A stretch of DNA of 41,427 nt from an uncultured Candidatus Saccharibacteria bacterium (GTDB taxonomy: Bacteria; Patescibacteriota; Minisyncoccia; Portnoybacterales; UBA2143). The notes under the pieces are model-generated. The model was not told the DNA's origin, did not search any database, and was given only the letters and a program-made list of their open reading frames with translations. The stretch spans positions 1-41,427 of the forward strand of contig CAZBRM010000004.1 of NCBI GenBank assembly GCA_964494655.1. Reading direction: 5' to 3'. Positions 438 through 28,820 of this stretch are shown here, piece by piece (positions within the stretch are counted from its first letter, which is position 1; each line of letters opens with the position of its first letter). The translations under genes and the position numbers were made by a program.

Positions 438-503
438 TAATTATATGATAGCATAAAAAATATTTAGCGTTACATTTACTTATTAAATTCAAGCCCTGCA
501 TAC

Positions 504-532
504 TTGACAAATACTGATAAAAATTCTATATT
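504..532 (+). promoter_or_regulatory. sigma70-type promoter of unit 0
   Basis: TTGACA 504-509, 17-nt spacer, TATATT 527-532. Confidence 0.6.
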
Positions 533-586
533 GTGAATATCCTAAAAAGTAGTTCATTTTATAATAAACATATGATTGGAGGGGGT

Positions 587-955
587 ATGAAAAAATTAAG
601 CATTATGGATATTAGCGTATCGGCTATTGCGTTAACTATCCTTAGCATCTGGATCGTTTTTGAAAAAGTATTCAAATTTTTCAGCAAATGTAGAATGAAG
701 AAAATCACCGAAATTGAAAAACTAGATGATGCTATAGTGTTTAAAAATGGGCATCGTCATTTATTTACATTAGAAAAAGATGGAAAATACGCAATAAATA
801 TTTCCAGTAGTGGTGTAATAGCTTTTTTATACTTCGGATGTTCCTTGGAAAATGATTACCATGTATTTCGCATTTCACATAAAATCTTGAGAAGACTAAA
901 AGAGATTCTAACTCCATCTAATTTTATGTACGAGCAAGGTCTATACCGGCTATAA
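587..955 (+). CDS. unit 0 cargo: hypothetical protein with N-terminal TM anchor (122 aa)
   Basis: ATG at 587 lies after GGAGGGGG (578-585). The track start at 533 lies inside the promoter/leader. MKKLSIMDISVSAIALTILSIWIVF is hydrophobic. Composition is AT-rich like the host. Confidence 0.6.
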   Translation: MKKLSIMDISVSAIALTILSIWIVFEKVFKFFSKCRMKKITEIEKLDDAIVFKNGHRHLFTLEKDGKYAINISSSGVIAFLYFGCSLENDYHVFRISHKILRRLKEILTPSNFMYEQGLYRL

Positions 956-986
956 CAAAACTTAAAATCTCTCCTGAAAAATCCAA

Positions 987-1030
987 AGAGCTGGTTCAAC
1001 GCAATGTTGTTCTGGCTCTTTTCTTTTCCT
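987..1030 (+). terminator. intrinsic terminator of unit 0 (family X)
   Basis: AGAGCTGG...CTGGCTCT stem followed by TTTCTTTTCC. Confidence 0.6.
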
Positions 1031-1232
1031 AAAATCTAATTACCTCTGTAAATTCCATACTATCTAACAGAACAGTCAGCCGAAGCTGGAGCGCCAATCA
1101 TGAGAATATAAAGAATTAAAAGAGAAATGACAAAATAAAAGGCCTGTTGCCGCCAAAGCCCAATCCCTAAAGCTAAAAAGAGCAATATTTGCGTCATAAT
1201 AATCATGTGGATGGAAGATATGGACTAAATCA
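1031..1232. repeat. long inter-cassette repeat, copy 1 (direct repeat of 5507-5710)
   Basis: AAAATCTAATTACCTC...GCGTCATAATAATCATGTGGATGG is nearly identical to 5507-5710 at an offset of 4476 bp. It replaces the short AAATTGTAGCTATAGAGTTATAGG block. Confidence 0.9.
1060..1206 (-). CDS. 48-aa hydrophobic small ORF inside long repeat copy 1
   Basis: MIIMTQILLFLALGIGLWRQQAFYFVISLLILYILMIGAPASADCSVR has two TM-like segments. It is below the track cut-off and has no clear SD or promoter. It is conserved in copy 2 with mostly synonymous changes. Confidence 0.4.
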   Translation of the reverse strand: MIIMTQILLFLALGIGLWRQQAFYFVISLLILYILMIGAPASADCSVR

Positions 1233-1261
1233 TTGACAAATTAAACTGGGTATGATATAAT
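1233..1261 (+). promoter_or_regulatory. consensus promoter of unit 1
   Basis: TTGACA 1233-1238, 17 nt, TATAAT 1256-1261. Confidence 0.7.
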
Positions 1262-1294
1262 ATAAACATTAACAATTAAATAGGAGGAAATGAA

Positions 1295-1618
1295 ATGAAT
1301 ATTTATGTTAGTGAATCGGTTTCTGAGGTAGTAGATGGCTTGAGGGCTCAAGAGATTCCGGGAATCAACGTTGACTATACGTCTGAACCAGAAGATCCCG
1401 AGAATCCTAATGGGTATGTTGTGCTAAAGAATAAACCTTATGATATTATAGCGGTTGTATCAAGTGTGATTCGCTGGAGGAAGGTTCAGCCGGATTGGGG
1501 ACATCCTAAACAAGCGAAAGCTTGCATTCAGATTCTCTCTTTGGCTCGCAAAATGGAGCTTGAAGGGTCCATAAGGGAAAAAGCGAAAAATCTCTTTTTC
1601 TTTATTAAGGAAGATTAA
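1295..1618 (+). CDS. unit 1 cargo: hypothetical acidic protein (107 aa)
   Basis: AGGAGG 1282-1287 lies 7 nt before the ATG. There is no recognisable family. Confidence 0.65.
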   Translation: MNIYVSESVSEVVDGLRAQEIPGINVDYTSEPEDPENPNGYVVLKNKPYDIIAVVSSVIRWRKVQPDWGHPKQAKACIQILSLARKMELEGSIREKAKNLFFFIKED

Positions 1619-1672
1619 GTAAATTCTTTAAGAGCCAGAGCTGGCTGACTGACATTCTATTCAATCATACTT

Positions 1673-1710
1673 AAGCCGCTGGGTCTTCGGACTTAACGGC
1701 TTTTTCTATT
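1673..1710 (+). terminator. intrinsic terminator of unit 1 (family Y, UUCG loop)
   Basis: AAGCCGCTGGGTC-TTCG-GACTTAACGGCTT followed by TTTTCTATTCC. Confidence 0.65.
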
Positions 1711-1712
1711 CC

Positions 1713-1765
1713 AAAATTATAGCTATGGAGTAAGTGGTATATGTATTAGAAATATGTCTAAATCA
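1713..1765. repeat. inter-cassette block, copy A (diverged)
   Basis: AAAATTATAGCTATGGAGTAAGTGGTATATGTATTAGAAATATGTCTAAATCA aligns to the AAATTGTAGCTATAGAGTTATAGG...ATATG..TAAA block. Confidence 0.7.
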
Positions 1766-1794
1766 TTGACAAATTAAACTAGATATGATAATAT
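1766..1794 (+). promoter_or_regulatory. promoter of unit 2
   Basis: TTGACA 1766-1771, 17 nt, TAATAT 1789-1794. The spacer is nearly identical to that of unit 1. Confidence 0.65.
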
Positions 1795-1800
1795 ATAAAT

Positions 1801-1989
1801 ACTTGGAAAGTTACCTAGCGAACTTCCATATTATCAAGCGGACAGCTGGGCCTTCCGAAAGACGTTTCCCGGTCTTCGGAGGGTATAACAGGGATTTTCC
1901 TAAGCGGGAAAAGTGTCCACTGCTTAAGGAGAACGTTAGGACACTACTTCCCCGAGTGAACTTAGAGTAGCTCGGGGATTTTCTTTTCC
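1801..1989 (+). ncRNA. unit 2 cargo: candidate structured ncRNA (~185 nt), family unknown
   Basis: There is no SD and no ATG downstream of the predicted TSS. Stems: TGGAAAGTT/AACTTCCA; CCTTCCGAAAGAC/GTCTTCGGAGGG; TTTTCC/GGAAAA; GTGTCC/GGACAC; and the terminator CCCCGAG/CTCGGGG. Ends are approximate. Confidence 0.5.
1950..1989 (+). terminator. intrinsic terminator of unit 2
   Basis: CCCCGAG-N14-CTCGGGG followed by ATTTTCTTTTCC. Confidence 0.65.
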
Positions 1990-1990
1990 C

Positions 1991-2042
1991 AAATTGTAGC
2001 TATAGAGTTATAGGTATGTGTGTTAGAGATATGAGTTAAACA
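1991..2042. repeat. inter-cassette block, copy B
   Basis: AAATTGTAGCTATAGAGTTATAGGTATGTGTGTTAGAGATATGAGTTAAACA. Confidence 0.85.
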
Positions 2043-2070
2043 TTGACAAAATATATGTATATGGTATGAT
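2043..2070 (+). promoter_or_regulatory. promoter of unit 3
   Basis: TTGACA 2043-2048, 16 nt, TATGAT 2065-2070. Confidence 0.55.
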
Positions 2071-2125
2071 AAGGATACAAATTAAATAGTTCTTAATCTT
2101 TTAACAACTAAATCAGGAGGGAAAA

Positions 2126-3004
2126 ATGGAAAAGGTAAGGGTTATATTACATGTAATGTTTGGAGGTGGCTCAAATGATTCTCATTATGGCGCTAATGGT
2201 TATGTACATCTAGAACTACAGGAAAAAGCGGGGGTCGAAATCGATTTCGTGTCTTTCTCCGGAACGTATCTTCACGGCAACGACCTTGAACGTTTCCTAA
2301 GAGAATGCGAAGATGCTCAGGTTATCGTTCTTGATGCCTGGAACCATCCGTTAAACAAAGATTATGGTAGCCGAGAATGGAACGATCCTCATGAGAGTAT
2401 GGCTAGAATCGCTAGACAAATATCAAGGATAAACCCCTCAGCGCAAATTTTCGCCGATCTTATGGAAAGCTTTAACAAAGTCGCTGTTCACGAAATTGCG
2501 GAACCAATCAAAACATGGACAGATAAAAAAATCGTTGGGGCGATTAAACGAAGCGTATTCAAAAAAGGTCAGCCTACGGTTTTAGTCTTTGACGACACCG
2601 AGAAACATCAGGACGCAGCAGACGAACAGCTTTCCGCCTACAATCTCGTTATCGCTAGAACCTACGATAAAGCTGAAACACTTATCGCCAAAAAAAGATT
2701 CGATTACGTCCTACTCGATCTCCTGGTTCCGGCCAGCGATAAAACTCTGGGGTCAAAAGGAAAAAAGTATGTCGGACAAGAAATGCCTCTCACGCCGCTA
2801 CTTGCTTTCCTGGCTCTTAAACAGGGAATTAAGAAGATTGGCATTCTTACCGACGCAAACCATCATGATCATCCAGCTTCTGCTGCTGTCGACATTTTCG
2901 GAAGCCCATTCGTCATAGGCAATGCCAAGATACAGATTTCTAACCGTGGCGTTACTTCAGAAGGAGTCAAAGACTGGAAAGGTTTGATGGATCAACTCAA
3001 TTAA
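2126..3004 (+). CDS. unit 3 cargo: hypothetical 292-aa protein; the C-terminal half has a CheY-like receiver-fold pattern
   Basis: AGGAGGG 2115-2121 lies before the ATG. TVLVFDD...FDYVLLDLLVP...IGILTD resembles receiver beta1/beta3/beta4 signatures. The N-terminal half also looks flavodoxin-like (RVILHVMFGGG, AQVIVLDAW). The fold call is tentative. Confidence 0.7.
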   Translation: MEKVRVILHVMFGGGSNDSHYGANGYVHLELQEKAGVEIDFVSFSGTYLHGNDLERFLRECEDAQVIVLDAWNHPLNKDYGSREWNDPHESMARIARQISRINPSAQIFADLMESFNKVAVHEIAEPIKTWTDKKIVGAIKRSVFKKGQPTVLVFDDTEKHQDAADEQLSAYNLVIARTYDKAETLIAKKRFDYVLLDLLVPASDKTLGSKGKKYVGQEMPLTPLLAFLALKQGIKKIGILTDANHHDHPASAAVDIFGSPFVIGNAKIQISNRGVTSEGVKDWKGLMDQLN

Positions 3005-3023
3005 GTTCTATAATCTCAACTAA

Positions 3024-3061
3024 AAGAGCCGGAATAAACAATCGTTCTGGCTTTTTTTCTT
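3024..3061 (+). terminator. intrinsic terminator of unit 3 (family X)
   Basis: AAGAGCCGG...CTGGCTTTT stem running into TTTTTTTCTTTCC. Confidence 0.6.
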
Positions 3062-3066
3062 TCCCT

Positions 3067-3118
3067 AAAACCGTGCTATAGACATAGTGGCATGTGGATG
3101 AAAGATATGTCTAAATCC
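3067..3118. repeat. inter-cassette block, copy C (variant)
   Basis: AAAACCGTGCTATAGACATAGTGGCATGTGGATGAAAGATATGTCTAAATCC. It is closest to copy G. Confidence 0.8.
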
Positions 3119-3146
3119 TTGACAAATTATATCAGTATGTTATAAT
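3119..3146 (+). promoter_or_regulatory. promoter of unit 4
   Basis: TTGACA 3119-3124, 16 nt, TATAAT 3141-3146. Confidence 0.7.
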
Positions 3147-3183
3147 GTAAACAATATTAACAATTAAATAAGAGGAGAAGACA

Positions 3184-3525
3184 ATGGCATCAATACCAAA
3201 AGAGGACATTCCAAAGACAGCCGAAGCAATCAGTAAAGCAATTCCAGAAAAAAATCGTTACGACAAGCCAATTTGGCAAGGAGTTCTCAAGCTCATTGAG
3301 GAAAGTGAATTCGGCAAGAAGAATGCGCAATCTGATATCGTATCTCCATTGCCCGAGGGCAGAAGCGAGACGGAAGAGATGATGTCTGGCAGTTTTGATG
3401 GGGTGCAAATAGAAATGATGAGATTCTGCAATTCTGTTCTTGGCAGTTGTGGATCCGTTTCGATGGAGCCATACACGGCAGGATTGGGCACACGTTCAAT
3501 GACTCTTACGTTCGAAGCCAATTAA
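3184..3525 (+). CDS. unit 4 cargo: hypothetical protein (113 aa)
   Basis: AGAGGAG lies before the ATG. The leader ACAATATTAACAATTAAATAAGAGGAG is homologous to those of units 1 and 8. No family is recognised. Confidence 0.65.
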   Translation: MASIPKEDIPKTAEAISKAIPEKNRYDKPIWQGVLKLIEESEFGKKNAQSDIVSPLPEGRSETEEMMSGSFDGVQIEMMRFCNSVLGSCGSVSMEPYTAGLGTRSMTLTFEAN

Positions 3526-3527
3526 TC

Positions 3528-3593
3528 AGAGGCCAGTTAACCTCTCTCGCAAAAAGAAGAGGTCAAATAAATATACTGGCCTCTTTTCTTTTG
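3528..3593 (+). terminator. intrinsic terminator of unit 4 (family X, long)
   Basis: AGAGGCCAG (3528-3536) pairs with CTGGCCTCT (3576-3584), with an inner ACCTCT/AGAGGT stem, then TTTTCTTTTG. Confidence 0.6.
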
Positions 3594-3595
3594 TT

Positions 3596-3647
3596 AAATT
3601 GTAGCTATAGAGTTATAGGCATGTGGATGAGGAGTATGATTTAAAGA
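3596..3647. repeat. inter-cassette block, copy D
   Basis: AAATTGTAGCTATAGAGTTATAGGCATGTGGATGAGGAGTATGATTTAAAGA. Confidence 0.85.
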
Positions 3648-3677
3648 TTGACAGATTATAGATTGGTGTGGTATAAC
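3648..3677 (+). promoter_or_regulatory. promoter of unit 5
   Basis: TTGACA 3648-3653, 18 nt, TATAAC 3672-3677. Confidence 0.55.
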
Positions 3678-3683
3678 CATGAT

Positions 3684-3703
3684 ATCGTAAAACGGTTTAC
3701 GAT
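3684..3703 (+). promoter_or_regulatory. perfect hairpin in the unusually long leader of unit 5
   Basis: ATCGTAAA-ACGG-TTTACGAT forms an 8-bp stem. A second stem, ATCTG/CAGAT, lies just downstream. Confidence 0.45.
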
Positions 3704-3765
3704 CTACCAGTTATCTGATAGTCCAGATATTTAAAAACTTCAAATCTTACTAAAGGAGGGTAAAA

Positions 3766-4137
3766 ATGACTAAAAAAGCTAACGAGGAGAAGGCCAAACT
3801 TAAGGAATTGTGGATATTGTTATTTGAAGAACCACAAAGCTTAAGTAATGAGCAAATCACACGTTTACTTGAAGCGGAAAAAGAGCTTCAAGATGTCGTA
3901 TACTATGTCTATCATCGGTTTCCAGAAATGATGAAGGAAGTCCAAAGGTATTGGGCGAGAAAAAACGAGCTGTCTCAATTGCCTATTGAGGAATTACAAG
4001 AAAAGATGCAAAAAATATCGAATAGAAGAGCATCTATTCTGAAAAGCGTACCTGATGAAGAACTCAGTGATTCATTTTTTGAATCTTCACTTCTCGATTC
4101 TGATGAAAATATCCTCTATGAGCTTTTGAAAGAATGA
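3766..4137 (+). CDS. unit 5 cargo: hypothetical acidic, probably helical protein (123 aa)
   Basis: AAAGGAGGG lies before the ATG. The protein is rich in E/K/L. No family is recognised. Confidence 0.65.
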   Translation: MTKKANEEKAKLKELWILLFEEPQSLSNEQITRLLEAEKELQDVVYYVYHRFPEMMKEVQRYWARKNELSQLPIEELQEKMQKISNRRASILKSVPDEELSDSFFESSLLDSDENILYELLKE

Positions 4138-4163
4138 GACACAAGAGTCTAACTCTTAATATT

Positions 4164-4200
4164 AAGCCACCAGTCTTCGGACTTGGTGGCTTTTTTCTTT
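4164..4200 (+). terminator. intrinsic terminator of unit 5 (family Y, UUCG loop)
   Basis: AAGCCACCAGTC-TTCG-GACTTGGTGGCTT followed by TTTTCTTT. Confidence 0.7.
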
Positions 4201-4203
4201 TCT

Positions 4204-4256
4204 AAATTGTAGCTATAGAGTTATAGGCATGTGGATGAGGGATATGGGTTATATCC
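4204..4256. repeat. inter-cassette block, copy E
   Basis: AAATTGTAGCTATAGAGTTATAGGCATGTGGATGAGGGATATGGGTTATATCC. Confidence 0.85.
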
Positions 4257-4285
4257 TTGACGGAATGTGTGTATATGTGTATAAT
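4257..4285 (+). promoter_or_regulatory. promoter of unit 6
   Basis: TTGACG 4257-4262, 17 nt, TATAAT 4280-4285. Confidence 0.65.
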
Positions 4286-4332
4286 GATGGTATAATTAAA
4301 TAGAATTCAAATCTGAAAAAAGGAGGGTAAAA

Positions 4333-4584
4333 ATGGAAATCATATTTAACGAAGAAGAAGCAGTGTCTTGGGGTGATCCAGATGATCCTAGGAATACCCC
4401 AGAAAAGCTGGTTGAACGTAGAAGAGCTGGTCTCATTAAGCTGGGAGAATTCGTGGGAGCCGAAAGGATAGAATTTGTCCCGGAACATAAAAGGGATATT
4501 TATATCCTTACAAAAGGCGGAAAGAAATTATCGATTATCGCCAGAGGAAACGGGTTTGACGGAGGATGGCTTGAAGTAGAATAA
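4333..4584 (+). CDS. unit 6 cargo: hypothetical protein (83 aa)
   Basis: AAGGAGGG lies before the ATG. The leader ...CAAATCT...AAAGGAGGGTAAAAATG is homologous to that of unit 5. Confidence 0.65.
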   Translation: MEIIFNEEEAVSWGDPDDPRNTPEKLVERRRAGLIKLGEFVGAERIEFVPEHKRDIYILTKGGKKLSIIARGNGFDGGWLEVE

Positions 4585-4618
4585 TCTGATTTTCTTCAAC
4601 TGCCTATCTAATTAATTA

Positions 4619-4658
4619 AAGGGTCAGTTCGGTAAACGTTCTGGCTCTTTTCTATTCC
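4619..4658 (+). terminator. intrinsic terminator of unit 6 (family X)
   Basis: GGGTCAG...CTGGCTC stem (with G-U pairs) followed by TTTTCTATTCC. Confidence 0.55.
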
Positions 4659-4660
4659 CT

Positions 4661-4713
4661 AAATTGTAGCTATAGACATATAGGTATATGGATAAGGAAT
4701 ATGAATTAAACTC
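4661..4713. repeat. inter-cassette block, copy F
   Basis: AAATTGTAGCTATAGACATATAGGTATATGGATAAGGAATATGAATTAAACTC. Confidence 0.85.
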
Positions 4714-4742
4714 TTGACAAATCTATTCACATATAATAATAT
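4714..4742 (+). promoter_or_regulatory. promoter of unit 7
   Basis: TTGACA 4714-4719, 17 nt, TAATAT 4737-4742. Confidence 0.6.
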
Positions 4743-4748
4743 TATAAT

Positions 4749-4857
4749 AATTGGATGTAAATTTGTGCCACCGGTCAAAGAACGTATAAGGCACGGAGCA
4801 CTTACAACATCCATACAATAATATAAAGGGTCAAGGCAAAGCTTTGACCTTTTTTTT
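4749..4857 (+). ncRNA. unit 7 cargo: candidate small structured RNA (~110 nt), family unknown
   Basis: There is no SD and no ORF. A long irregular hairpin is formed by GGATGT...GTGCC-loop-GGCAC...ACATCC, followed by the terminator. Ends are approximate. Confidence 0.5.
4829..4857 (+). terminator. intrinsic terminator of unit 7
   Basis: GGTCAAGGC-AAA-GCTTTGACC followed by a run of 8 T. Confidence 0.75.
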
Positions 4858-4908
4858 ATTCCTATGTATTAGTCTATAATAAATAACCTGCTTTTTTCTT
4901 TTCCTCCC
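4858..4908 (+). other. collapsed or empty unit remnant
   Basis: ATTCC-TATGTATTAG-TCTATAATAAATAA-CCTGCTTTTTTCTTTTCC contains fragments of block copy A, a TATAAT and half a terminator, with no cargo between them. Confidence 0.35.
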
Positions 4909-4961
4909 AAAACCATGCTATAGACATAGTGGTATGTGGATGAGGAATATGGGCTTAATCA
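4909..4961. repeat. inter-cassette block, copy G (variant)
   Basis: AAAACCATGCTATAGACATAGTGGTATGTGGATGAGGAATATGGGCTTAATCA. Confidence 0.8.
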
Positions 4962-4990
4962 TTGACTTTTAATATTTTGTGTTGTATGGT
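4962..4990 (+). promoter_or_regulatory. promoter of unit 8
   Basis: TTGACT 4962-4967, 17 nt, TATGGT 4985-4990. Confidence 0.5.
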
Positions 4991-5026
4991 AGAGACAACA
5001 TTAACAATTGAATAAGGAGATAAGAA

Positions 5027-5446
5027 ATGGATAAGGAAATGAAAGAAAGGATTAAGGAGAATCTTAGTTTGATCGGCAAAAGAGAAAAAACTGGAAATTG
5101 GAGCAAACTCATCAATGTCCACGATAATGTTTGGGGACATGCTGATAACATTAGGGGCAACATCTTAAACATCTGGGACAACATCTCAAACATTAGGGGC
5201 GACGTCTCAAACATCAGGGGCAACGTCTCAAGAATCAGTGGCGACGTCACAAACATCTGGGGCGACGTCTCAAACATCAGGGGCGACATCTCAGATATCA
5301 GTGGCTACTTCTCAAGAATCAGTGGCGACGTCACAAACATCTGGGGCGACGTCTCAGATATCAGTGGCTACGTCTCAAGAATCAGTGGCGACGTCACAAA
5401 CATCAGTGGCGACGTCTCAGATATTATCAAAGTCCTCGAAGATTAG
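5027..5446 (+). CDS. unit 8 cargo: heptad-repeat protein (139 aa)
   Basis: AAGGAG lies before the ATG. Residues 37-134 are 14 tandem heptads with consensus G-D-V-S-N-I-(R/W/S). Confidence 0.7.
   Translation: MDKEMKERIKENLSLIGKREKTGNWSKLINVHDNVWGHADNIRGNILNIWDNISNIRGDVSNIRGNVSRISGDVTNIWGDVSNIRGDISDISGYFSRISGDVTNIWGDVSDISGYVSRISGDVTNISGDVSDIIKVLED
5135..5428 (+). repeat. 14 x 21-bp tandem repeat inside the unit 8 CDS, with a 63-bp super-period
   Basis: GGCGACGTCTCAAACATCAGG-type units. Units 8-10 and 11-13 are nearly identical triplets. Other frames on both strands stay open across it. Confidence 0.9.
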
Positions 5447-5468
5447 GGATTAGAAGGCAAACTACAAG

Positions 5469-5500
5469 AGGCTGACTCAACAAGAGTTGGCCTTTTTTCT
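5469..5500 (+). terminator. intrinsic terminator of unit 8 (family X)
   Basis: AGGCTGACTC-AACAA-GAGTTGGCCT followed by TTTTTCTATTC. It is close to the unit 10 terminator. Confidence 0.65.
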
Positions 5501-5506
5501 ATTCTC

Positions 5507-5710
5507 AAAATCTAATTACCTCCTCAAATTCCATACTATCCCACAGAACAGTCAGCCGAAGCTGGAGCGCCAATCATGAGGATATAAAGAATTAAAAGAG
5601 AAATGACAAAATAAAAGGCCTGTTGCCGCCAAAGCCCAATCCCTAAAGCTAAAAAGAGCAATATTTGCGTCATAATAATCATGTGAATGGTAGAAATATG
5701 TCTAAATCCA
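5507..5710. repeat. long inter-cassette repeat, copy 2 (direct repeat of 1031-1232)
   Basis: Nearly identical to copy 1 across the ORF48 segment and more diverged at both ends. Confidence 0.9.
5536..5682 (-). CDS. 48-aa hydrophobic small ORF, copy 2
   Basis: Same ORF as 1060-1206. There are three nucleotide differences: two synonymous (Ile, Val) and one R-to-G change at the last codon. Confidence 0.4.
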   Translation of the reverse strand: MIIMTQILLFLALGIGLWRQQAFYFVISLLILYILMIGAPASADCSVG

Positions 5711-5745
5711 TTGACATTAATTATTTTTTACTACATGCTATTATT
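5711..5745 (+). promoter_or_regulatory. promoter region of unit 9 (TTGACA kept, probable extended -10)
   Basis: TTGACA is at 5711-5716, but there is no -10 at 16-18 nt. TGCTATTAT at 5737-5745 fits an extended -10 (TGnTATAAT). Confidence 0.4.
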
Positions 5746-5781
5746 AAAAGTAGTTCTTAATATATAAAGGAGGAGGATGCA

Positions 5782-6033
5782 ATGGAACAAGAAATTTTTG
5801 AAATTATAAAAAATTCTCAAATATTACCAGAAATGCTGATTTTATTTGGCACTACAATCCTTATAACTACTTCTGCATGGACACTCTTATTTCCTATTGG
5901 AAAAGGAAAATATCTTGTTTCGTCATGGTATTACTTTTGGAGAATTATGCTCTTTGGAATGTTTGCTTCTTTTCTTTTGGTACTTACTGTTATAGTTGCT
6001 GCTTATATACAATGTTCTTTTAAGAGCATATAG
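5782..6033 (+). CDS. unit 9 cargo: small membrane protein, 2-3 TM (83 aa)
   Basis: AAAGGAGGAGG lies before the ATG. Hydrophobic stretches include LILFGTTILITTSAWTLLF and IMLFGMFASFLLVLTVIVAAYI. Composition is AT-rich like the host. No terminator precedes the next gene. Confidence 0.6.
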   Translation: MEQEIFEIIKNSQILPEMLILFGTTILITTSAWTLLFPIGKGKYLVSSWYYFWRIMLFGMFASFLLVLTVIVAAYIQCSFKSI

Positions 6034-6085
6034 CTTGACACGAAATATCTTTTCTAACTATTAGACAAAAAGGAGGGTTATAAAA

Positions 6086-6379
6086 ATGGAGATTAGAGTT
6101 GTTTTAGACTTACCGGGACTGACAATGAAGAAAATTTTTGATGTGCCCAAGGAATTAGTTCCTAGAAAGGACGATGGGGTTAAATTTTGGGAAGAAAAAA
6201 GAAAAGACGCCGTTATGTTGGGTTATGCAACTGCTTTTTCGGTAACACGTGACCTAACTCAGGAAGATAAGCCTCCGATAGAGGTTTTTCTTAAGCCGGA
6301 GAGTGATGATTTAACCAAAGCGTGTCTGGAAGAATTTGAGAGGGTACTATCAAAACAAGGCTGGCAAATCCAGCGTTAA
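6086..6379 (+). CDS. unit 10 cargo: hypothetical protein (97 aa)
   Basis: AAAGGAGGG lies before the ATG. A weak TTGACA is at 6035-6040. It may be co-transcribed with unit 9. Confidence 0.6.
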   Translation: MEIRVVLDLPGLTMKKIFDVPKELVPRKDDGVKFWEEKRKDAVMLGYATAFSVTRDLTQEDKPPIEVFLKPESDDLTKACLEEFERVLSKQGWQIQR

Positions 6380-6400
6380 ATCTTTTTGCCGAGTCAACGA

Positions 6401-6436
6401 AGAGGCCGACTCAACGCAGTTGGCCTCTTTTTATTT
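6401..6436 (+). terminator. intrinsic terminator of unit 10 (family X)
   Basis: AGAGGCCGAC-TCAACGCA-GTTGGCCTCT forms a 10-bp stem, followed by TTTTATTTCC. Confidence 0.7.
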
Positions 6437-6439
6437 CCC

Positions 6440-6469
6440 AAATTGTAGCTATAGAGTTATAGGTATGTG
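6440..6469. repeat. terminal half-copy of the inter-cassette block (copy H)
   Basis: AAATTGTAGCTATAGAGTTATAGGTATGTG is identical to copy B up to ATGTG. After that the sequence is unique (CATTCCCGAGACGG). Confidence 0.85.
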
Positions 6470-6598
6470 CATTCCCGAGACGGCAGTGATATGCCTTGTT
6501 CCAGTAATATTTAATTTTTCTTTTAAAACCATTCCAAAACCATGCCTTAGAAAGATGAACAGGCGTGATAGTGCGTCCTCTTGCTCAAAACCAGGCAT
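6449..6598 (-). CDS. 49-codon ORF translationally coupled to cobO, ending inside repeat copy H
   Basis: The ATG overlaps the cobO stop (TAATG). The product is MPGFEQEDALSRLFIFLRHGFGMVLKEKLNITGTRHITAVSGMHIPITL. It is below the track cut-off and its coding status is unproven. Confidence 0.35.
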   Translation of the reverse strand: MPGFEQEDALSRLFIFLRHGFGMVLKEKLNITGTRHITAVSGMHIPITL

Positions 6599-7116: not shown

Positions 7117-10100
7117 TTATACATTACAAGTCGGACAGCTTCCAGGAGGCAAATCTGGAATATCAGGCGAAGGATCACGCAATTCAGGAGAAACATCTTT
7201 TTCTTTAACCATTTTCTTATCTGCTTTTGGCAAAGATCCTTGCTCTTTACCTTTAATATTTAAAACTTGCTGTTTTCTGCTTTCGTTTCTGTAAAAAGTT
7301 ACACCCTTGCATCCTAAATCATAAGACATAATATATGCTTTTCTAATATCGTCTTCTGAAGCGGAATAAGGAAAATTAATTGTCTTACTTGTGGCATTAT
7401 CAACATATTTTTGAAAAGCTGCCTGCATTTTTATATGATCCTCCGGCTTAATATCTAAAGCAGTAACAAAAATCTTTTTTATATCAGTTGGAATTTCTTT
7501 AATATCCTGAATACTTCCTTTTCTTGAAATTTCTTCAATAAGTTTTTTAGACCAAAAACCTCGTTCTTTGGCTATTTCTTCAAAAATAGAATTAACTTCA
7601 ACTAATTCTTGATCGCCTAAAACATGTTTTCTAGTATAAGCGACAGCAAAAAGCGGTTCAATAGCTGATGAGGCGCCAGCAATAATACCTATTGTTCCTG
7701 TTGGAGCAATTGTAGTTATAGTCGCATTCCTAACTTTAGGCATATTTTTTTCATTATAAATACTATCTTTTAAATTAGGAAAAACTTCTCTTTGCTCAGC
7801 TAATCCAACTGATGCTTTTCTGCCTTCTTCTTGAATAAATTTCATCACACTTTTACCAACCATTAGCGCTTTTCTGGAATTATACGGAATCCTTAACCTG
7901 ATAAGCATATCTGTAAAACCCATTACGCCTAAACCTATTTTCCTATTCCCTCTAGTTAATTTTTCTATTTCAGGCAGAGGATAACGATTAACTTCAATAA
8001 CATTATCTAAAAAATGAACTGCGTTAATAGTTGTTTGCTTAAGCTTGTCCCAATCAATTTCCCAGATTTTTGACCGAGCAGTTTTTTTCTTAATTATTTT
8101 GCTTAAATTGATACTACCTAAGTTACAGCTCTCGAAAGGAAGCAATGGCTGCTCCCCGCATTGTCGACTGATGATTCCACTCATTAAAGGTTTTTTAGAT
8201 AATTTAGTTTTGCCATTAGGTTTAGTGATATAAGCAACAGTATGAAATTCATCTACGGTGATATTATAAACATCTTCATTGCCATAAAATTTTATAGATT
8301 TAACTTTATGATTATGCATTATCAACTCTTCTCTGAAAGCATTATAGCCACCAAAAGTACTCCTTAAATCTCCAGAATAACCAAAATTATTTACATATTT
8401 CTTAAACTCTAAATAATTAGGCATATTTCTTTTTTCTTTGATAAATTTGATCCCTAATTTATAAAGTTCTCTCCTCAATTTATCTCTGTTTTTCTTTTTT
8501 GCATCAATAACACTATCTGTATTTCTAATACTATTAACATAGCTAGCTCTACAGGATCTTGAACAAAAACTCTTATTTATATTTTCTTTATATATTATTT
8601 CCTTACTACATTTTAAGCACGCCGACTTAATATAAGAATAGATAGTTTTTGATTTACTTATTTTTTCTTTAATTTCAGGATGTTTCTTATATAGTTCAAT
8701 AATTCTTAAACTTTGATCTTTTCTATTTTTAGGATTTTTAAAATACAAACTAGTTAAATCGCCAATTAATTTTTTTGTTGTCTCTCTATGCTTTCGACCA
8801 AACATGCCATTCCCCTTGCCAGATTTTAATTTACTCATCTTTTCTCTATAAATATCTTTTTCTTGATCTGATAATTTTTGCCACCATTTTCCTTTCATTA
8901 TATTTTGTTCTCCAGTTTGATGTAAACTATCATGAGCGCTTTGGCTCATAACTTCTAAATTCTTAATATCATTATCCAGCCCATTAAAATTTTTATGATG
9001 AACTACTTCGTTTGGATATTTCTTAATCTTTCTGCCAAGTAAAAGCTCCGCAATCATTCTATGCTCGGATTTAGCTCTTTTACCATTATTTTGTGTTATC
9101 CCCCAATAAACACAATTTTTCCTAGTCGCTGTATATTGAAACTTATTAAAAGGCATCAAGCTTACACCTGGTTTTAAATCTTTCAATTTAACATCATTAT
9201 TTTTTCTATCTTTAAATTTATGATCTTCAGTAGCAATCAGATAACTATTATCATCAAAGACAACTTTCCAAACAGGAACATTAGTTCTTGTTTTCCTTGG
9301 ATTTCGTCCCATTCGAATTTGCACTTTTCCATTACCATAACAATATACTGGAATATCTTTTTTTTCTTTAACCAATTGTTTTATTGAAACACAATTTCTA
9401 CCATCAGCCACACCTACCAAGGTATCTCCAACTACGCATGGATTAGTGCTTTCTATCTTACCTAATTTTGGAGTTGGATTGTCTCTATTAATTCTGTCAA
9501 TGAAAATAACTCCTGGCTCTCCATTTTTCCACGCATAATCAACAATTAAATCAAAAACCATATTAGCGTCTAATTGGCCTGAAATTTGACCGTCTCGAGG
9601 ATTTATTAAATTATATTTCTTCTTCTTTTTAACCGCCTCCATAAATTCATCAGTCAAAGCAACGGAAATATTAAAATTATTTAAAACCCCTTCTTCTGAT
9701 TTAGCTGTAATAAATTCCAATATATCGGGATGATCAACATTTAAAATTCCCATATTAGCTCCACGTCTTTTGCCGCCCTGTTTTATTACATCAGTAGCCG
9801 CATTAAAAACACTCATAAAAGACAATGGACCAGAAGAAGCTCCTTGAGTTGATTTAATATTATCTCCCCTTGGGCGCAAATGAGAGAAATTAAAACCTGT
9901 ACCGCCACCACTTTTGTGAACCAAAGCGGTATTTTTAATTGCTTCAAAAATTTCCTCCATTGAATCACCTACTGGGAGAACAAAACAACCACTAAGTTGC
10001 TGGAGTACGCCTCCAGCATTCATTAATGTTGGAGAATTAGGTAAAAATTCCAAAGATGCCATCATTTTATAGAATTTTTCGCCAATATCAAAAAGTTCAT

Positions 10101-10599
10101 CATCTGAAATTGAAGGATTAAAAAACGACTCAGCTGAAGCAATATTAGCGGCTACCCGCTGAAATAATTGCTGAGGCGTTTCAATTATTTTTCCTTGTTC
10201 ATCTTTTTTTAAATATCTTGATTCAAGAACTTTTAAGGCATTAGGCATGAGCTTTGTTTTTACATTACGGCTTAAAAGCCACCACTTAGCATCTCTAAGC
10301 TCTTTTCTTTTTTGACGATAAAGACCGTATAACTCCGCAATATCTTTTTGGCCTTCTTTAGCTAATGTTTCAATAACTACATCCTGAAGTTGTTCTACTT
10401 TTGGGATTTCTTCTTTAAAACGCTTATTTAGAATTTCAACTACACTATTAGAAATTTTTTGGGCTAATTTTTTATCCTCTTTTCCTCCCGCCTGAAGAGC
10501 TTTTAAAATAGCTTCTGTAATTTTAACTTGATTAAAATTAACGATTCTACCATCTCTTTTTTTAACACTCTGTATATATTTTACATTCTTTTTAGACAT
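7117..10599 (-). CDS. nrdJ: adenosylcobalamin-dependent (class II) ribonucleotide reductase with N-terminal ATP-cone, interrupted by an intein
   Basis: ATP-cone KKRDGRIVNFNQVKITEAI. RNR core motifs are present. The finger loop ESTNP-[intein]-CGEQPLLPFESCNLGS is split. The C-terminus carries a CPTC pair. Confidence 0.9.
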   Translation of the reverse strand: MSKKNVKYIQSVKKRDGRIVNFNQVKITEAILKALQAGGKEDKKLAQKISNSVVEILNKRFKEEIPKVEQLQDVVIETLAKEGQKDIAELYGLYRQKRKELRDAKWWLLSRNVKTKLMPNALKVLESRYLKKDEQGKIIETPQQLFQRVAANIASAESFFNPSISDDELFDIGEKFYKMMASLEFLPNSPTLMNAGGVLQQLSGCFVLPVGDSMEEIFEAIKNTALVHKSGGGTGFNFSHLRPRGDNIKSTQGASSGPLSFMSVFNAATDVIKQGGKRRGANMGILNVDHPDILEFITAKSEEGVLNNFNISVALTDEFMEAVKKKKKYNLINPRDGQISGQLDANMVFDLIVDYAWKNGEPGVIFIDRINRDNPTPKLGKIESTNPCVVGDTLVGVADGRNCVSIKQLVKEKKDIPVYCYGNGKVQIRMGRNPRKTRTNVPVWKVVFDDNSYLIATEDHKFKDRKNNDVKLKDLKPGVSLMPFNKFQYTATRKNCVYWGITQNNGKRAKSEHRMIAELLLGRKIKKYPNEVVHHKNFNGLDNDIKNLEVMSQSAHDSLHQTGEQNIMKGKWWQKLSDQEKDIYREKMSKLKSGKGNGMFGRKHRETTKKLIGDLTSLYFKNPKNRKDQSLRIIELYKKHPEIKEKISKSKTIYSYIKSACLKCSKEIIYKENINKSFCSRSCRASYVNSIRNTDSVIDAKKKNRDKLRRELYKLGIKFIKEKRNMPNYLEFKKYVNNFGYSGDLRSTFGGYNAFREELIMHNHKVKSIKFYGNEDVYNITVDEFHTVAYITKPNGKTKLSKKPLMSGIISRQCGEQPLLPFESCNLGSINLSKIIKKKTARSKIWEIDWDKLKQTTINAVHFLDNVIEVNRYPLPEIEKLTRGNRKIGLGVMGFTDMLIRLRIPYNSRKALMVGKSVMKFIQEEGRKASVGLAEQREVFPNLKDSIYNEKNMPKVRNATITTIAPTGTIGIIAGASSAIEPLFAVAYTRKHVLGDQELVEVNSIFEEIAKERGFWSKKLIEEISRKGSIQDIKEIPTDIKKIFVTALDIKPEDHIKMQAAFQKYVDNATSKTINFPYSASEDDIRKAYIMSYDLGCKGVTFYRNESRKQQVLNIKGKEQGSLPKADKKMVKEKDVSPELRDPSPDIPDLPPGSCPTCNV
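8161..9438 (-). mobile_element. 426-aa intein with an HNH homing-endonuclease module, inserted before the catalytic Cys of NrdJ (residues 388-813)
   Basis: Block A CVVGDTLV; block B ATEDH; HNH VVHHKNFNGLDNDIKNLEVMSQSAHDSLH; NUMOD3-like NGMFGRKHRETTKKLI; Cys4 CLKC...CSRSC; block F VYNITVDEFHTVAY. It ends ...SGIISRQ followed by extein Cys. Confidence 0.85.
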
Positions 10600-28733: not shown

Positions 28734-28820
28734 GGGGATGTGCTGGAATTGGCAGACAGGATGGTCTCAAACACCATTGGACGCAAGTCCGTGAGGGTTC
28801 AACTCCCTCCATCCCCACCA
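28734..28820 (+). tRNA. tRNA-Leu (anticodon CAA), CCA encoded
   Basis: Acceptor GGGGATG/CATCCCC; anticodon arm ATGGT-CTCAAAC-ACCAT; long variable arm GGACGCAAGTCC; T arm GAGGG-TTCAACT-CCCTC; 3' ACCA. Confidence 0.9.

Follow-up and report, generated by a model that had tools for sequence, protein, structure and literature searches.

A probable small RNA gene as the sole cargo of an exchangeable cassette in a Patescibacteria chromosome

The DNA analysed here is a 41-kb piece of the genome of an uncultured member of the Patescibacteria (contig CAZBRM010000004.1, positions 1 to 41,427; hereafter the window), which carries a tandem array of short cassettes bounded by copies of one repeat. We interpret positions 1766–1990 of the window as a self-contained gene for a structured non-coding RNA, the sole cargo of a 277-bp cassette on this Patescibacteria chromosome, and we give this interpretation a probability of roughly 0.72. 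The element itself is genuine: a small RNA gene that is non-coding, structured and mobile. An earlier sequence-only reading of the same DNA had described a cassette free of open reading frames (ORFs) that yields a discrete, structured RNA of ~180 nucleotides (nt) from its own promoter and terminator and that belongs to no known family, and this core is supported by the sequence comparisons reported here. Together with the other loci sampled, the sequence considered comes to ~0.7 Mb and is fragmentary.

A promoter-to-terminator unit with a conserved fold

The cassette is delimited by two copies of the array repeat on the + strand. Its left boundary is the most diverged copy (1702–1765, core GCTATGGAGTAAGTGGTATATG at 1722–1743), its right boundary is the following copy (1979–2042, core at 1999–2020), and the length of 277 bp is measured between the repeat cores at 1722 and 1999. 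A sigma-70-type promoter (1766–1794, + strand) follows directly on the left copy, with a −35 box TTGACA at 1766–1771, a 17-nt spacer and an extended −10 element TGATAATAT at 1786–1794 (TG at 1786–87, TAATAT at 1789–1794), giving 10 of 12 consensus matches plus the extended −10. It had been called nearly identical to the promoter of the first unit of the array, and the two are indeed 90% identical over 42 nt (1758–1799 versus 1225–1266). From the position of the promoter, transcription probably starts at ~1800–1802. At the other end lies an intrinsic terminator (1950–1987, + strand), also noted earlier, in which CCCCGAG (1950–1956) pairs with CUCGGGG (1971–1977) across a 14-nt loop, followed by a tract that reads ATTTTCTTTT in the DNA and AUUUUCUUUU in the RNA. 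A simple terminator scan missed this stem because of the 14-nt loop. The predicted RNA comprises ~150 nt plus the terminator, roughly 180–185 nt overall.

As the sequence-only reading had stated, this unit offers no conventional start of translation. No ATG occurs in 1795–1990, no ORF of at least 20 codons led by a Shine-Dalgarno (SD) sequence was found in the 277-bp cassette, and the sole SD-like motif, AAGGAG, is followed by no start codon. The RNA has a G+C content of 48% in the window copy (48–51% across both homologues), compared with 31% in the host. The same cassette, letter for letter, recurs in at least 8 independent lake-metagenome assemblies.

A further copy was reached through a 61-codon frame that stays open across the RNA (1785–1970, + strand). 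A HMMER search over 1.84 billion representative proteins returned two matches to the product of this frame, P0001 and P0002. The first, a protein of 137 aa that is 69% identical to the 61-codon product over residues 1–52, led to contig L047 of a Portnoybacteria-like Patescibacterium with ~28% G+C, where the RNA element recurs at about 5769–5985. Between the −35 box and the T-tail, the window and L047 copies share 86% identity, and the homology covers the promoter, RNA and terminator only. The DNA past the terminator is unrelated between the two, and alignments of the L047 flanks to the array repeats score at the edge of the null. The L047 copy has a promoter of the form TTGACA-17-TGATAGTAT, a terminator CCCCGAGU/ACUCGGGG plus U-tract, and no ATG either; its neighbours are tyrS and non-coding DNA.

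The + strand of the window copy folds to −66.5 kcal/mol with z = −3.56 (n = 200 shuffles, of which none folds as well), in keeping with the earlier description of a highly structured RNA, while the − strand reaches z = −1.78. All four stems that had been named are present on the + strand. The 5' domain (1804–1850) contains stem H1 (1804–1812 / 1821–1828, TGGAAAGTT/AACTTCCA, one bulged A), in which 1805–1812 pairs with 1821–1827 around the loop CCUAGC (1814–1819). This loop can pair with GCUGGG at 1845–1850 to form a candidate H-type pseudoknot, P2, and an alternative long-range helix, P1, pairs 1802–1812 with 1893–1904. Hairpin H2 (1851–1883) is built from the strands 1851–1863 and 1872–1883 (CCTTCCG-A-AAGAC/GTCTTCGGAGGG). 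It had been described as a 12-bp hairpin; the hairpin stands, but it is modelled with 11 bp and the one-base bulges A1856 and A1860, and it is very stable, the most stable hairpin of the RNA. Its apical loop GUUUCCCG (1864–1871) is invariant between the homologues, has a probability of 0.99 of being unpaired in both, and is the only loop predicted to be open in both single-sequence ensembles. A linker with ACAGGGAU at 1888–1895 and hairpin H3 (UUUUCC 1895–1900 / GGAAAA 1907–1912) make up the next segment (1884–1912), followed by hairpin H4 (1913–1944), whose stem GUGUCC 1913–1918 / GGACAC 1939–1944 closes a 20-nt loop with the conserved UAAGGAGAA at 1925–1933.

The search for covariation in homologues that had been suggested earlier draws on two distinct sequences, the window copy and its one homologue in L047, and shuffling of the alignment columns between them served as the null for RNA structure. 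In L047 the H4 stem GUGUCC/GGACAC is replaced by ACGCCC/GGGCGU, with three compensatory pairs (P<0.003, column shuffle), and H2 shows one compensated pair and two wobble changes; the helices of the 5' domain have one compensated pair apiece. A five-helix model (H1, P2, H2, H3 and H4) contains 36 pairs, all standard in both sequences. Between the two RNA bodies there are 27 substitutions, 17 of which fall in paired columns, and every one of these 17 keeps its pair. Six pairs of the model are changed on both sides and five via wobble. When the 3' partners were moved by 1–3 columns and the pairs recounted, 34–61% of cells were paired, with 0–1 compensated pairs. G-U pairs alternating with C-G pairs tie the predicted structure to the + strand RNA. 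Judged from these two members, on which the full fold rests, the predicted fold is conserved on the + strand. Its solid elements are the 11-bp H2 with its GUUUCCCG loop, the 6-bp stem closing the 20-nt UAAGGAGAA loop, and the terminator.

The remaining architecture admits more than one arrangement. UUUUCC (1895–1900) has three possible partners, namely the 5'-near GGAAAG, GGAAAA at 1907–1912, and AGGAGAA in the H4 loop, and a local-hairpin model and an RNAalifold model with long-range P1 are both 100% compatible with both sequences. Minimum-free-energy and ensemble predictions from single sequences omit some of the four local stems, and the H4 stem (1913/1944) has an ensemble probability of 0.01–0.19. 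The sequence-only reading had placed an exposed AAGGAG inside the GTGTCC/GGACAC stem. The stem is corroborated by its three compensatory pairs, but the exposure depends on the model, and AAGGAG (1926–1931) is mostly predicted to be paired, to UUUUCCU at 1895–1901. On the earlier idea that AAGGAG may sequester the anti-SD sequence or pair with cassette leaders, the duplex scan described below is uninformative.

Coding potential, known families and mobility

The 61-codon frame, to which the sequence-only reading had also drawn attention, exists, but it shows no coding signature against the L047 homologue and was rejected as a gene. It begins at an ATG within the −10 box, upstream of the predicted transcription start, and closes with a stop inside the terminator loop. 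Its product has no match in Pfam, and a word-level search of 5.8 billion proteins found no relative. P0001 was likewise rejected as a real protein, as its frame opens at that same −10-box ATG and crosses the terminator into flanking DNA. P0002, a predicted protein of 340 aa, consists of at least five near-identical tandem repeats of 61–62 aa, and its E-value of 5e-8 is a sum over these repeats. Compared with P0001 it reaches E = 0.07, and we regard it as a chance match inflated by the tandem repeats rather than as a relative.

Divergence between the two copies points in the same direction. The 27 substitutions are distributed 11/6/10 over codon positions 1/2/3, an indel of 5 nt shifts the reading frame, and the stop codon is not conserved; in L047 the frame stays open for 137 aa. 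Amino-acid identity is 69%, compared with a DNA identity of 86–89%. This is the reverse of the pattern that a coding sequence leaves. We conclude that the RNA is non-coding.

No known class accounts for the RNA, as had been suspected. Across the whole window, the only match to Rfam 15 at gathering thresholds is a tRNA-Leu at 28734. At relaxed cut-offs (E<=10 for the window, E<=1 for L047) the best matches score 18–23 bits against thresholds of 39–90, and these sub-threshold matches cover mostly the terminator or the flanks and little of the RNA core. 6S RNA was rejected on two grounds: the predicted fold is a row of local hairpins with a possible pseudoknot rather than an end-paired rod, and there is no match to RF00013. 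An IS110 bridge RNA, an omega-RNA and a retron msr-msd are excluded because no DEDD recombinase, TnpB/IscB or reverse transcriptase is encoded nearby, in the window or in L047. By these sequence searches the RNA is a new family, of which two members were found.

A covariance model of the RNA, R1, was used to seek it in array and viral loci. With nhmmer and R1, no homologue was detected in ~25 other array loci. Viral contigs gave 0 matches to an exact 18-mer and a gapped pattern, and 34 chance matches to a 16-mer, none of which was confirmed by R1. Phage and plasmid DNA yielded only chance matches of 30–58 nt, located in the cassette flanks.

The setting of the L047 copy speaks for mobility. 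It lies directly 3' of tyrS, in a hypervariable spot with different contents in each of the relatives compared. None of 18 tyrS loci (L082–L095), with five close relatives of the tyrosyl-tRNA synthetase (TyrRS) at 86–99% identity, contains a homologue of the RNA. In contigs with a 99% identical TyrRS the RNA is missing, and the homologous sequence that they share with L047 extends no further than 19 nt past the tyrS stop. Because strains with a near-identical TyrRS do without it, the RNA unit is accessory, and the promoter-to-terminator unit as a whole is, on these comparisons, horizontally mobile and not housekeeping.

Directly after tyrS, a sequence resembling a tRNA 3' end (GGTTCGAATCC...CGGAGCCA) is found in all relatives (L047 5650–5680; L082–L091), where it marks the point at which they diverge, and L085 holds a second such copy at 7555–7600, ~350 nt downstream. 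ARAGORN found no tRNA gene in L047, the sole tyrS locus scanned. From its sequence, the site after tyrS looks like an integration hotspot with an att site derived from a tRNA end. On the 3' side of the RNA homologue, L047 also contains ~390 nt (5985–6375) of G+C-rich, ORF-free DNA full of short GC hairpins (for example TTCGCCTTACGGGCGAA and GCCGAGGCGCGAAGCGCCGAGGC), with a possible promoter; no Rfam family matched this segment.

Possible functions of the RNA

A trans-acting RNA is to be expected, because the unit is self-sufficient and strongly promoted. We propose that the RNA would act in trans on the initiation of translation. More specifically, the C-rich part UUUCCC of the apical loop of H2 may pair with the GGGAAA part of host ribosome-binding sites of the GGAGGGAAA type on mRNAs, and this pairing would occlude the SD regions in an antisense manner, as in the UCCC-loop small RNAs (sRNAs) of Firmicutes. 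Ribosome-binding sites of the GGAGGGAAA type do occur on the neighbouring cassettes. We consider antisense occlusion of SD regions by the GUUUCCCG loop to be a tentative model, the likeliest of the specific functions considered but still one that would more often than not be wrong.

Several observations weigh against our interpretation of the RNA and its mechanism. Only two distinct sequences of the RNA are known, and the covariation between them is thin. Stems of 4–5 bp with one compensated pair are expected by chance, with means of 4.7 and 1.7 per shuffle, and because of this no significance attaches to H1, P2 or the UAAG/CUUA pairing taken singly, which leaves H4 as the only individually significant helix. 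Ensemble predictions for the two homologues do not agree, and H4 has a low probability in them. The promoter is as conserved as the RNA, and the sequence identity may therefore largely reflect recent transfer. The complementarity between the loop and the ribosome-binding sites extends over 6 nt only, and in a duplex scan against the 42 translation-start regions of the window the RNA performed no better than shuffled RNA (best −36 kcal/mol, compared with a shuffled best of −32.7 +/- 2.9 and a minimum of −44.5). Finally, neither CsrA nor Hfq was seen in the ~0.7 Mb, although in so fragmentary a sample their absence is uninformative.

Ranking close behind antisense occlusion is the possibility that the RNA serves as a decoy, in which GGA motifs (in UAAGGAGAA, ACAGGGAU, GCGGACAG and others) titrate a CsrA-type protein or the anti-SD tail of the 16S rRNA. 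GGA occurs 8 times in 185 nt, or once per 23 nt, where 3.1 would be expected (P = 0.005), and the L047 copy has 7; the motifs include AAGGA in UAAGGAGAA and AGGGA in ACAGGGAU. In the CsrA SELEX consensus, ACAGGGAU matches the core ACARGGAU, and UAAGGAG is complementary to CUCCUUA, the canonical 3' end of the 16S rRNA. Furthermore, csrA has been reported among the highly expressed genes of ultra-small groundwater prokaryotes (PMC9938205). The excess of GGA is nevertheless ambiguous: UCC is enriched as well (6 against 2.3 expected), which may reflect GGAA/UUCC stems, and most GGA motifs are predicted to be paired, with two to four plausibly exposed depending on the fold. No Rfam match to CsrB, RsmX, RsmY or RsmZ was obtained, and no csrA was seen in the window or the sampled loci. 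A decoy is conceivable, at odds slightly poorer than those of the antisense model.

A much larger claim combines these functions with the mobility of the unit. It would make the element the first RNA-only mobile module in Patescibacteria, hopping by means of integrase-less, comEC-targeted cassettes and reprogramming translation initiation, in recipient cells that hold only a few dozen ribosomes, as an SD/anti-SD mimic or a CsrA sponge, and we think it rather unlikely in this full form. In a bolder variant still, the RNA may act as a guide in cassette recombination itself.

Slightly less probable again is a cis-acting element, an orphan riboswitch or attenuator whose alternative folds gate read-through of the terminator into the next cassette. 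The three mutually exclusive partners of UUUUCC 1895–1900, all of which fit both homologues, would suit such a switch, as would the ability of GCGGG (1904–1908) to pair with the 5' strand of the terminator, and the junction closed by the long-range P1 helix in the RNAalifold model resembles an aptamer. Yet the next cassette has its own promoter (2043–2070, 11 of 12 consensus matches), and the L047 sequence past the terminator is unrelated, so that the conserved unit ends at the terminator. The alternative helices show no significant covariation, and no riboswitch family matched.

The cassette could also be a decayed one, in which a promoter and a terminator surround the remnant of a lost gene that is transcribed and functionless. 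In favour of decay, the cassette with its 277 bp is among the shortest of the array, its upstream repeat is the most diverged copy, and only two members of the family are known. A functionless remnant would hardly be expected to keep pairing at 17 of 17 substitutions in paired columns, with three compensatory changes in H4, nor to retain exactly the promoter-to-terminator unit in two unrelated genomic contexts, and the RNA combines the highest G+C content with a strongly negative fold z-score. We regard decay as improbable. A small protein, read from the 61-codon frame or over 55 codons from a TTG at 1803 and translated leaderless or without an SD sequence, is the least credible alternative: the frame does stay open from promoter to terminator, some cassettes of related arrays have ATG-led ORFs without an SD, and the TTG lies 2–3 nt past the predicted transcription start in both homologues, but against this stand the ATG within the −10 box with no later ATG in either copy, the substitution pattern, indel, unconserved stop and low amino-acid identity described above, the lack of a Pfam match, the annotation of the frame by neither of two metagenome gene-call sets, and our estimate that about 1 in 10 to 1 in 5 random stretches of like length and composition would be open in some frame.

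If the interpretation as a small RNA acting on ribosome-binding sites, or on a global protein that binds them, is true, the element would be a translation switch gained by horizontal transfer, in cells whose ribosomes are very few. The candidate family lends itself to direct tests: its ends and strand are defined, and it offers two solid helices and two invariant loops. The Patescibacteria account for much of bacterial diversity, and to our knowledge hardly anything has been described of their regulatory RNAs.

The cassette array and its relation to known systems

The array spans ~480–6470 on the + strand at 38% G+C, and the chromosome piece around it (31% G+C) encodes housekeeping functions (cobA, a class II ribonucleotide reductase (RNR) with an intein, ftsZ, ftsA, several aminoacyl-tRNA synthetases, topA and relA). 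The intein that splits the RNR gene (7117–10599, − strand) contains an HNH/NUMOD3 homing endonuclease. A repeat of ~77 nt occurs in 8 copies in the window, where the chance expectation for its core pattern is 0.04. It is laid out as a T-tail, AAATTGTAGCTATAGAGTTATAGGYATGTGGATGAGGAATATG and a TTGACA promoter, with the core consensus GCTATAGAnnTAkwGGyATrTG, and each copy precedes a variable cargo and a private terminator. Most of the cargo consists of SD-led ORFans of 50–390 aa with ribosome-binding sites that read GGAGGGAAAAAUG and GGAGGGUAAAAAUG, and no function was assigned to the array cargo by Pfam, PADLOC or PHROG.

With the repeat core, we recovered ~25 genuine array loci from genome and metagenome contigs (among them L009, L011, L013, L026, L029, L031, L035, L039, L040, L042, L045 and L046). 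The repeat bounds differing cargo in many contigs of Patescibacteria/Parcubacteria, and because one and the same repeat does so across contigs, the units are true exchangeable cassettes. Literature searches on such arrays found no description of them. The RNA moves as an expression unit complete in itself, which shows that the arrays exchange RNA genes in addition to ORFan proteins.

The sequence-only reading had called an RNA cargo in the slot of protein cargos unusual; within this array it is not a one-off. A second ORF-less cassette of 248 bp (4691–4916) has a promoter TTGACA-17-TAATAT at 4714–4742, a hairpin of ~60 nt (GGAUGU...ACAUCC) enclosing GUGCC/GGCAC, a strong 13-bp terminator and a fold z-score of −5.7. 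It has no Rfam match, no homologue of it was found outside the window strain, and nhmmer detected no relatedness between it and the RNA described here.

Other cassettes differ in their own ways. A cassette protein of 139 aa (5027–5446) contains 13 tandem repeats of 21 nt (7 aa, GDVSNI(R/S/W)-like) and has weak matches only, to coiled-coil or repeat families. In other loci, some cassettes form a subfamily with a different promoter (TTGAAAATAcATAT..TGTGGTAgaATAAA) and with ORFs that start at an ATG but lack an SD sequence (L009, − strand, 4801–5690; L039, − strand, 299–1091; L031, 1480–2545; L046, − strand, 243–1252); judged by eye, its cargo includes Maf-like and MBL-fold proteins. L009 also has ~30 nt in a 5' untranslated region that recur, reverse-complemented, in the 3' untranslated region.

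No recombinase of any kind was found in the 41-kb window, in which the array is flanked by comEC on one side and cobA-RNR-ftsZ on the other. Immediately to the left of the array is an intact comEC whose site is empty. The core motif YATRTG of the repeat forms att-like hybrid junctions with the internal site of comEC, AATCAT-ATG-CATTCC (protein SGMH-MII). The DNA after the last repeat core (GGTATGTG followed by CATTCCCGAG..., window 6448–6598) is 98% identical to one side of the comEC site, and the same right-hand junction is seen in L034 (7662–7801). Two elements of 206 nt (1016–1221 and 5492–5697) carry 130 nt from the other side of this comEC site, 96–97% identical, fused to the right half of the repeat, and the 48-aa 'hydrophobic ORF' of these elements corresponds to ComEC residues 194–236. 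A further comEC-linked site lies in L001 (2303–2492). By their sequence, the comEC junctions look like the attL/attR products of a site-specific insertion into comEC. The RNA also provides a handle on this array, with its att-like comEC junctions, its 77-nt repeat found in many contigs and its lack of a nearby integrase.

The nearest precedent is the ORF-less integron cassette that encodes sRNA-Xcc1 in Xanthomonas campestris (PMC6557892). In both cases a small RNA occupies one slot of a tandem, repeat-bounded and horizontally exchanged array, and promoter activity is carried on the cassette. The systems themselves differ. As single-stranded DNA, the repeats of the array fold to −0.9 to −7.5 kcal/mol with z-scores of −1.5 to +0.5 and are not attC-like, lacking hairpins with R''/R' boxes of the type GTTRRRY, which the core GTTATAG does not fit. 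Neither an IntI integrase nor attI lies beside the array, and the 41 kb contain no integrase. The crossover core matches a site inside comEC. Every cassette here has its own promoter and terminator, and the RNA, in a Patescibacteria host, shares no similarity with sRNA-Xcc1 or any other Rfam family.

The UCCC-loop sRNAs of Firmicutes, represented by RNAIII and the RsaE/RoxS class, act by base pairing and offer a second comparison. They resemble the RNA in being stand-alone genes with a promoter and an intrinsic terminator, in presenting a C-rich motif in the predicted-open apical loop of a stable hairpin, and in a host with strong SD sequences of the GGAGG type. They differ in sequence and covariance model, to which the RNA has no similarity, and the RNA has a single C-rich loop instead of several and resides in a mobile cassette. 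The third comparison is with CsrB and RsmZ, which sequester CsrA; the CsrB/RsmY/RsmZ family is known mainly from Gammaproteobacteria. Here, there is no Rfam match, many GGA motifs are located in stems, and the partner protein is putative, but the RNA shares with this family the density of GGA motifs, some of them in loops or linkers, and the form of a small stand-alone gene with a strong promoter.

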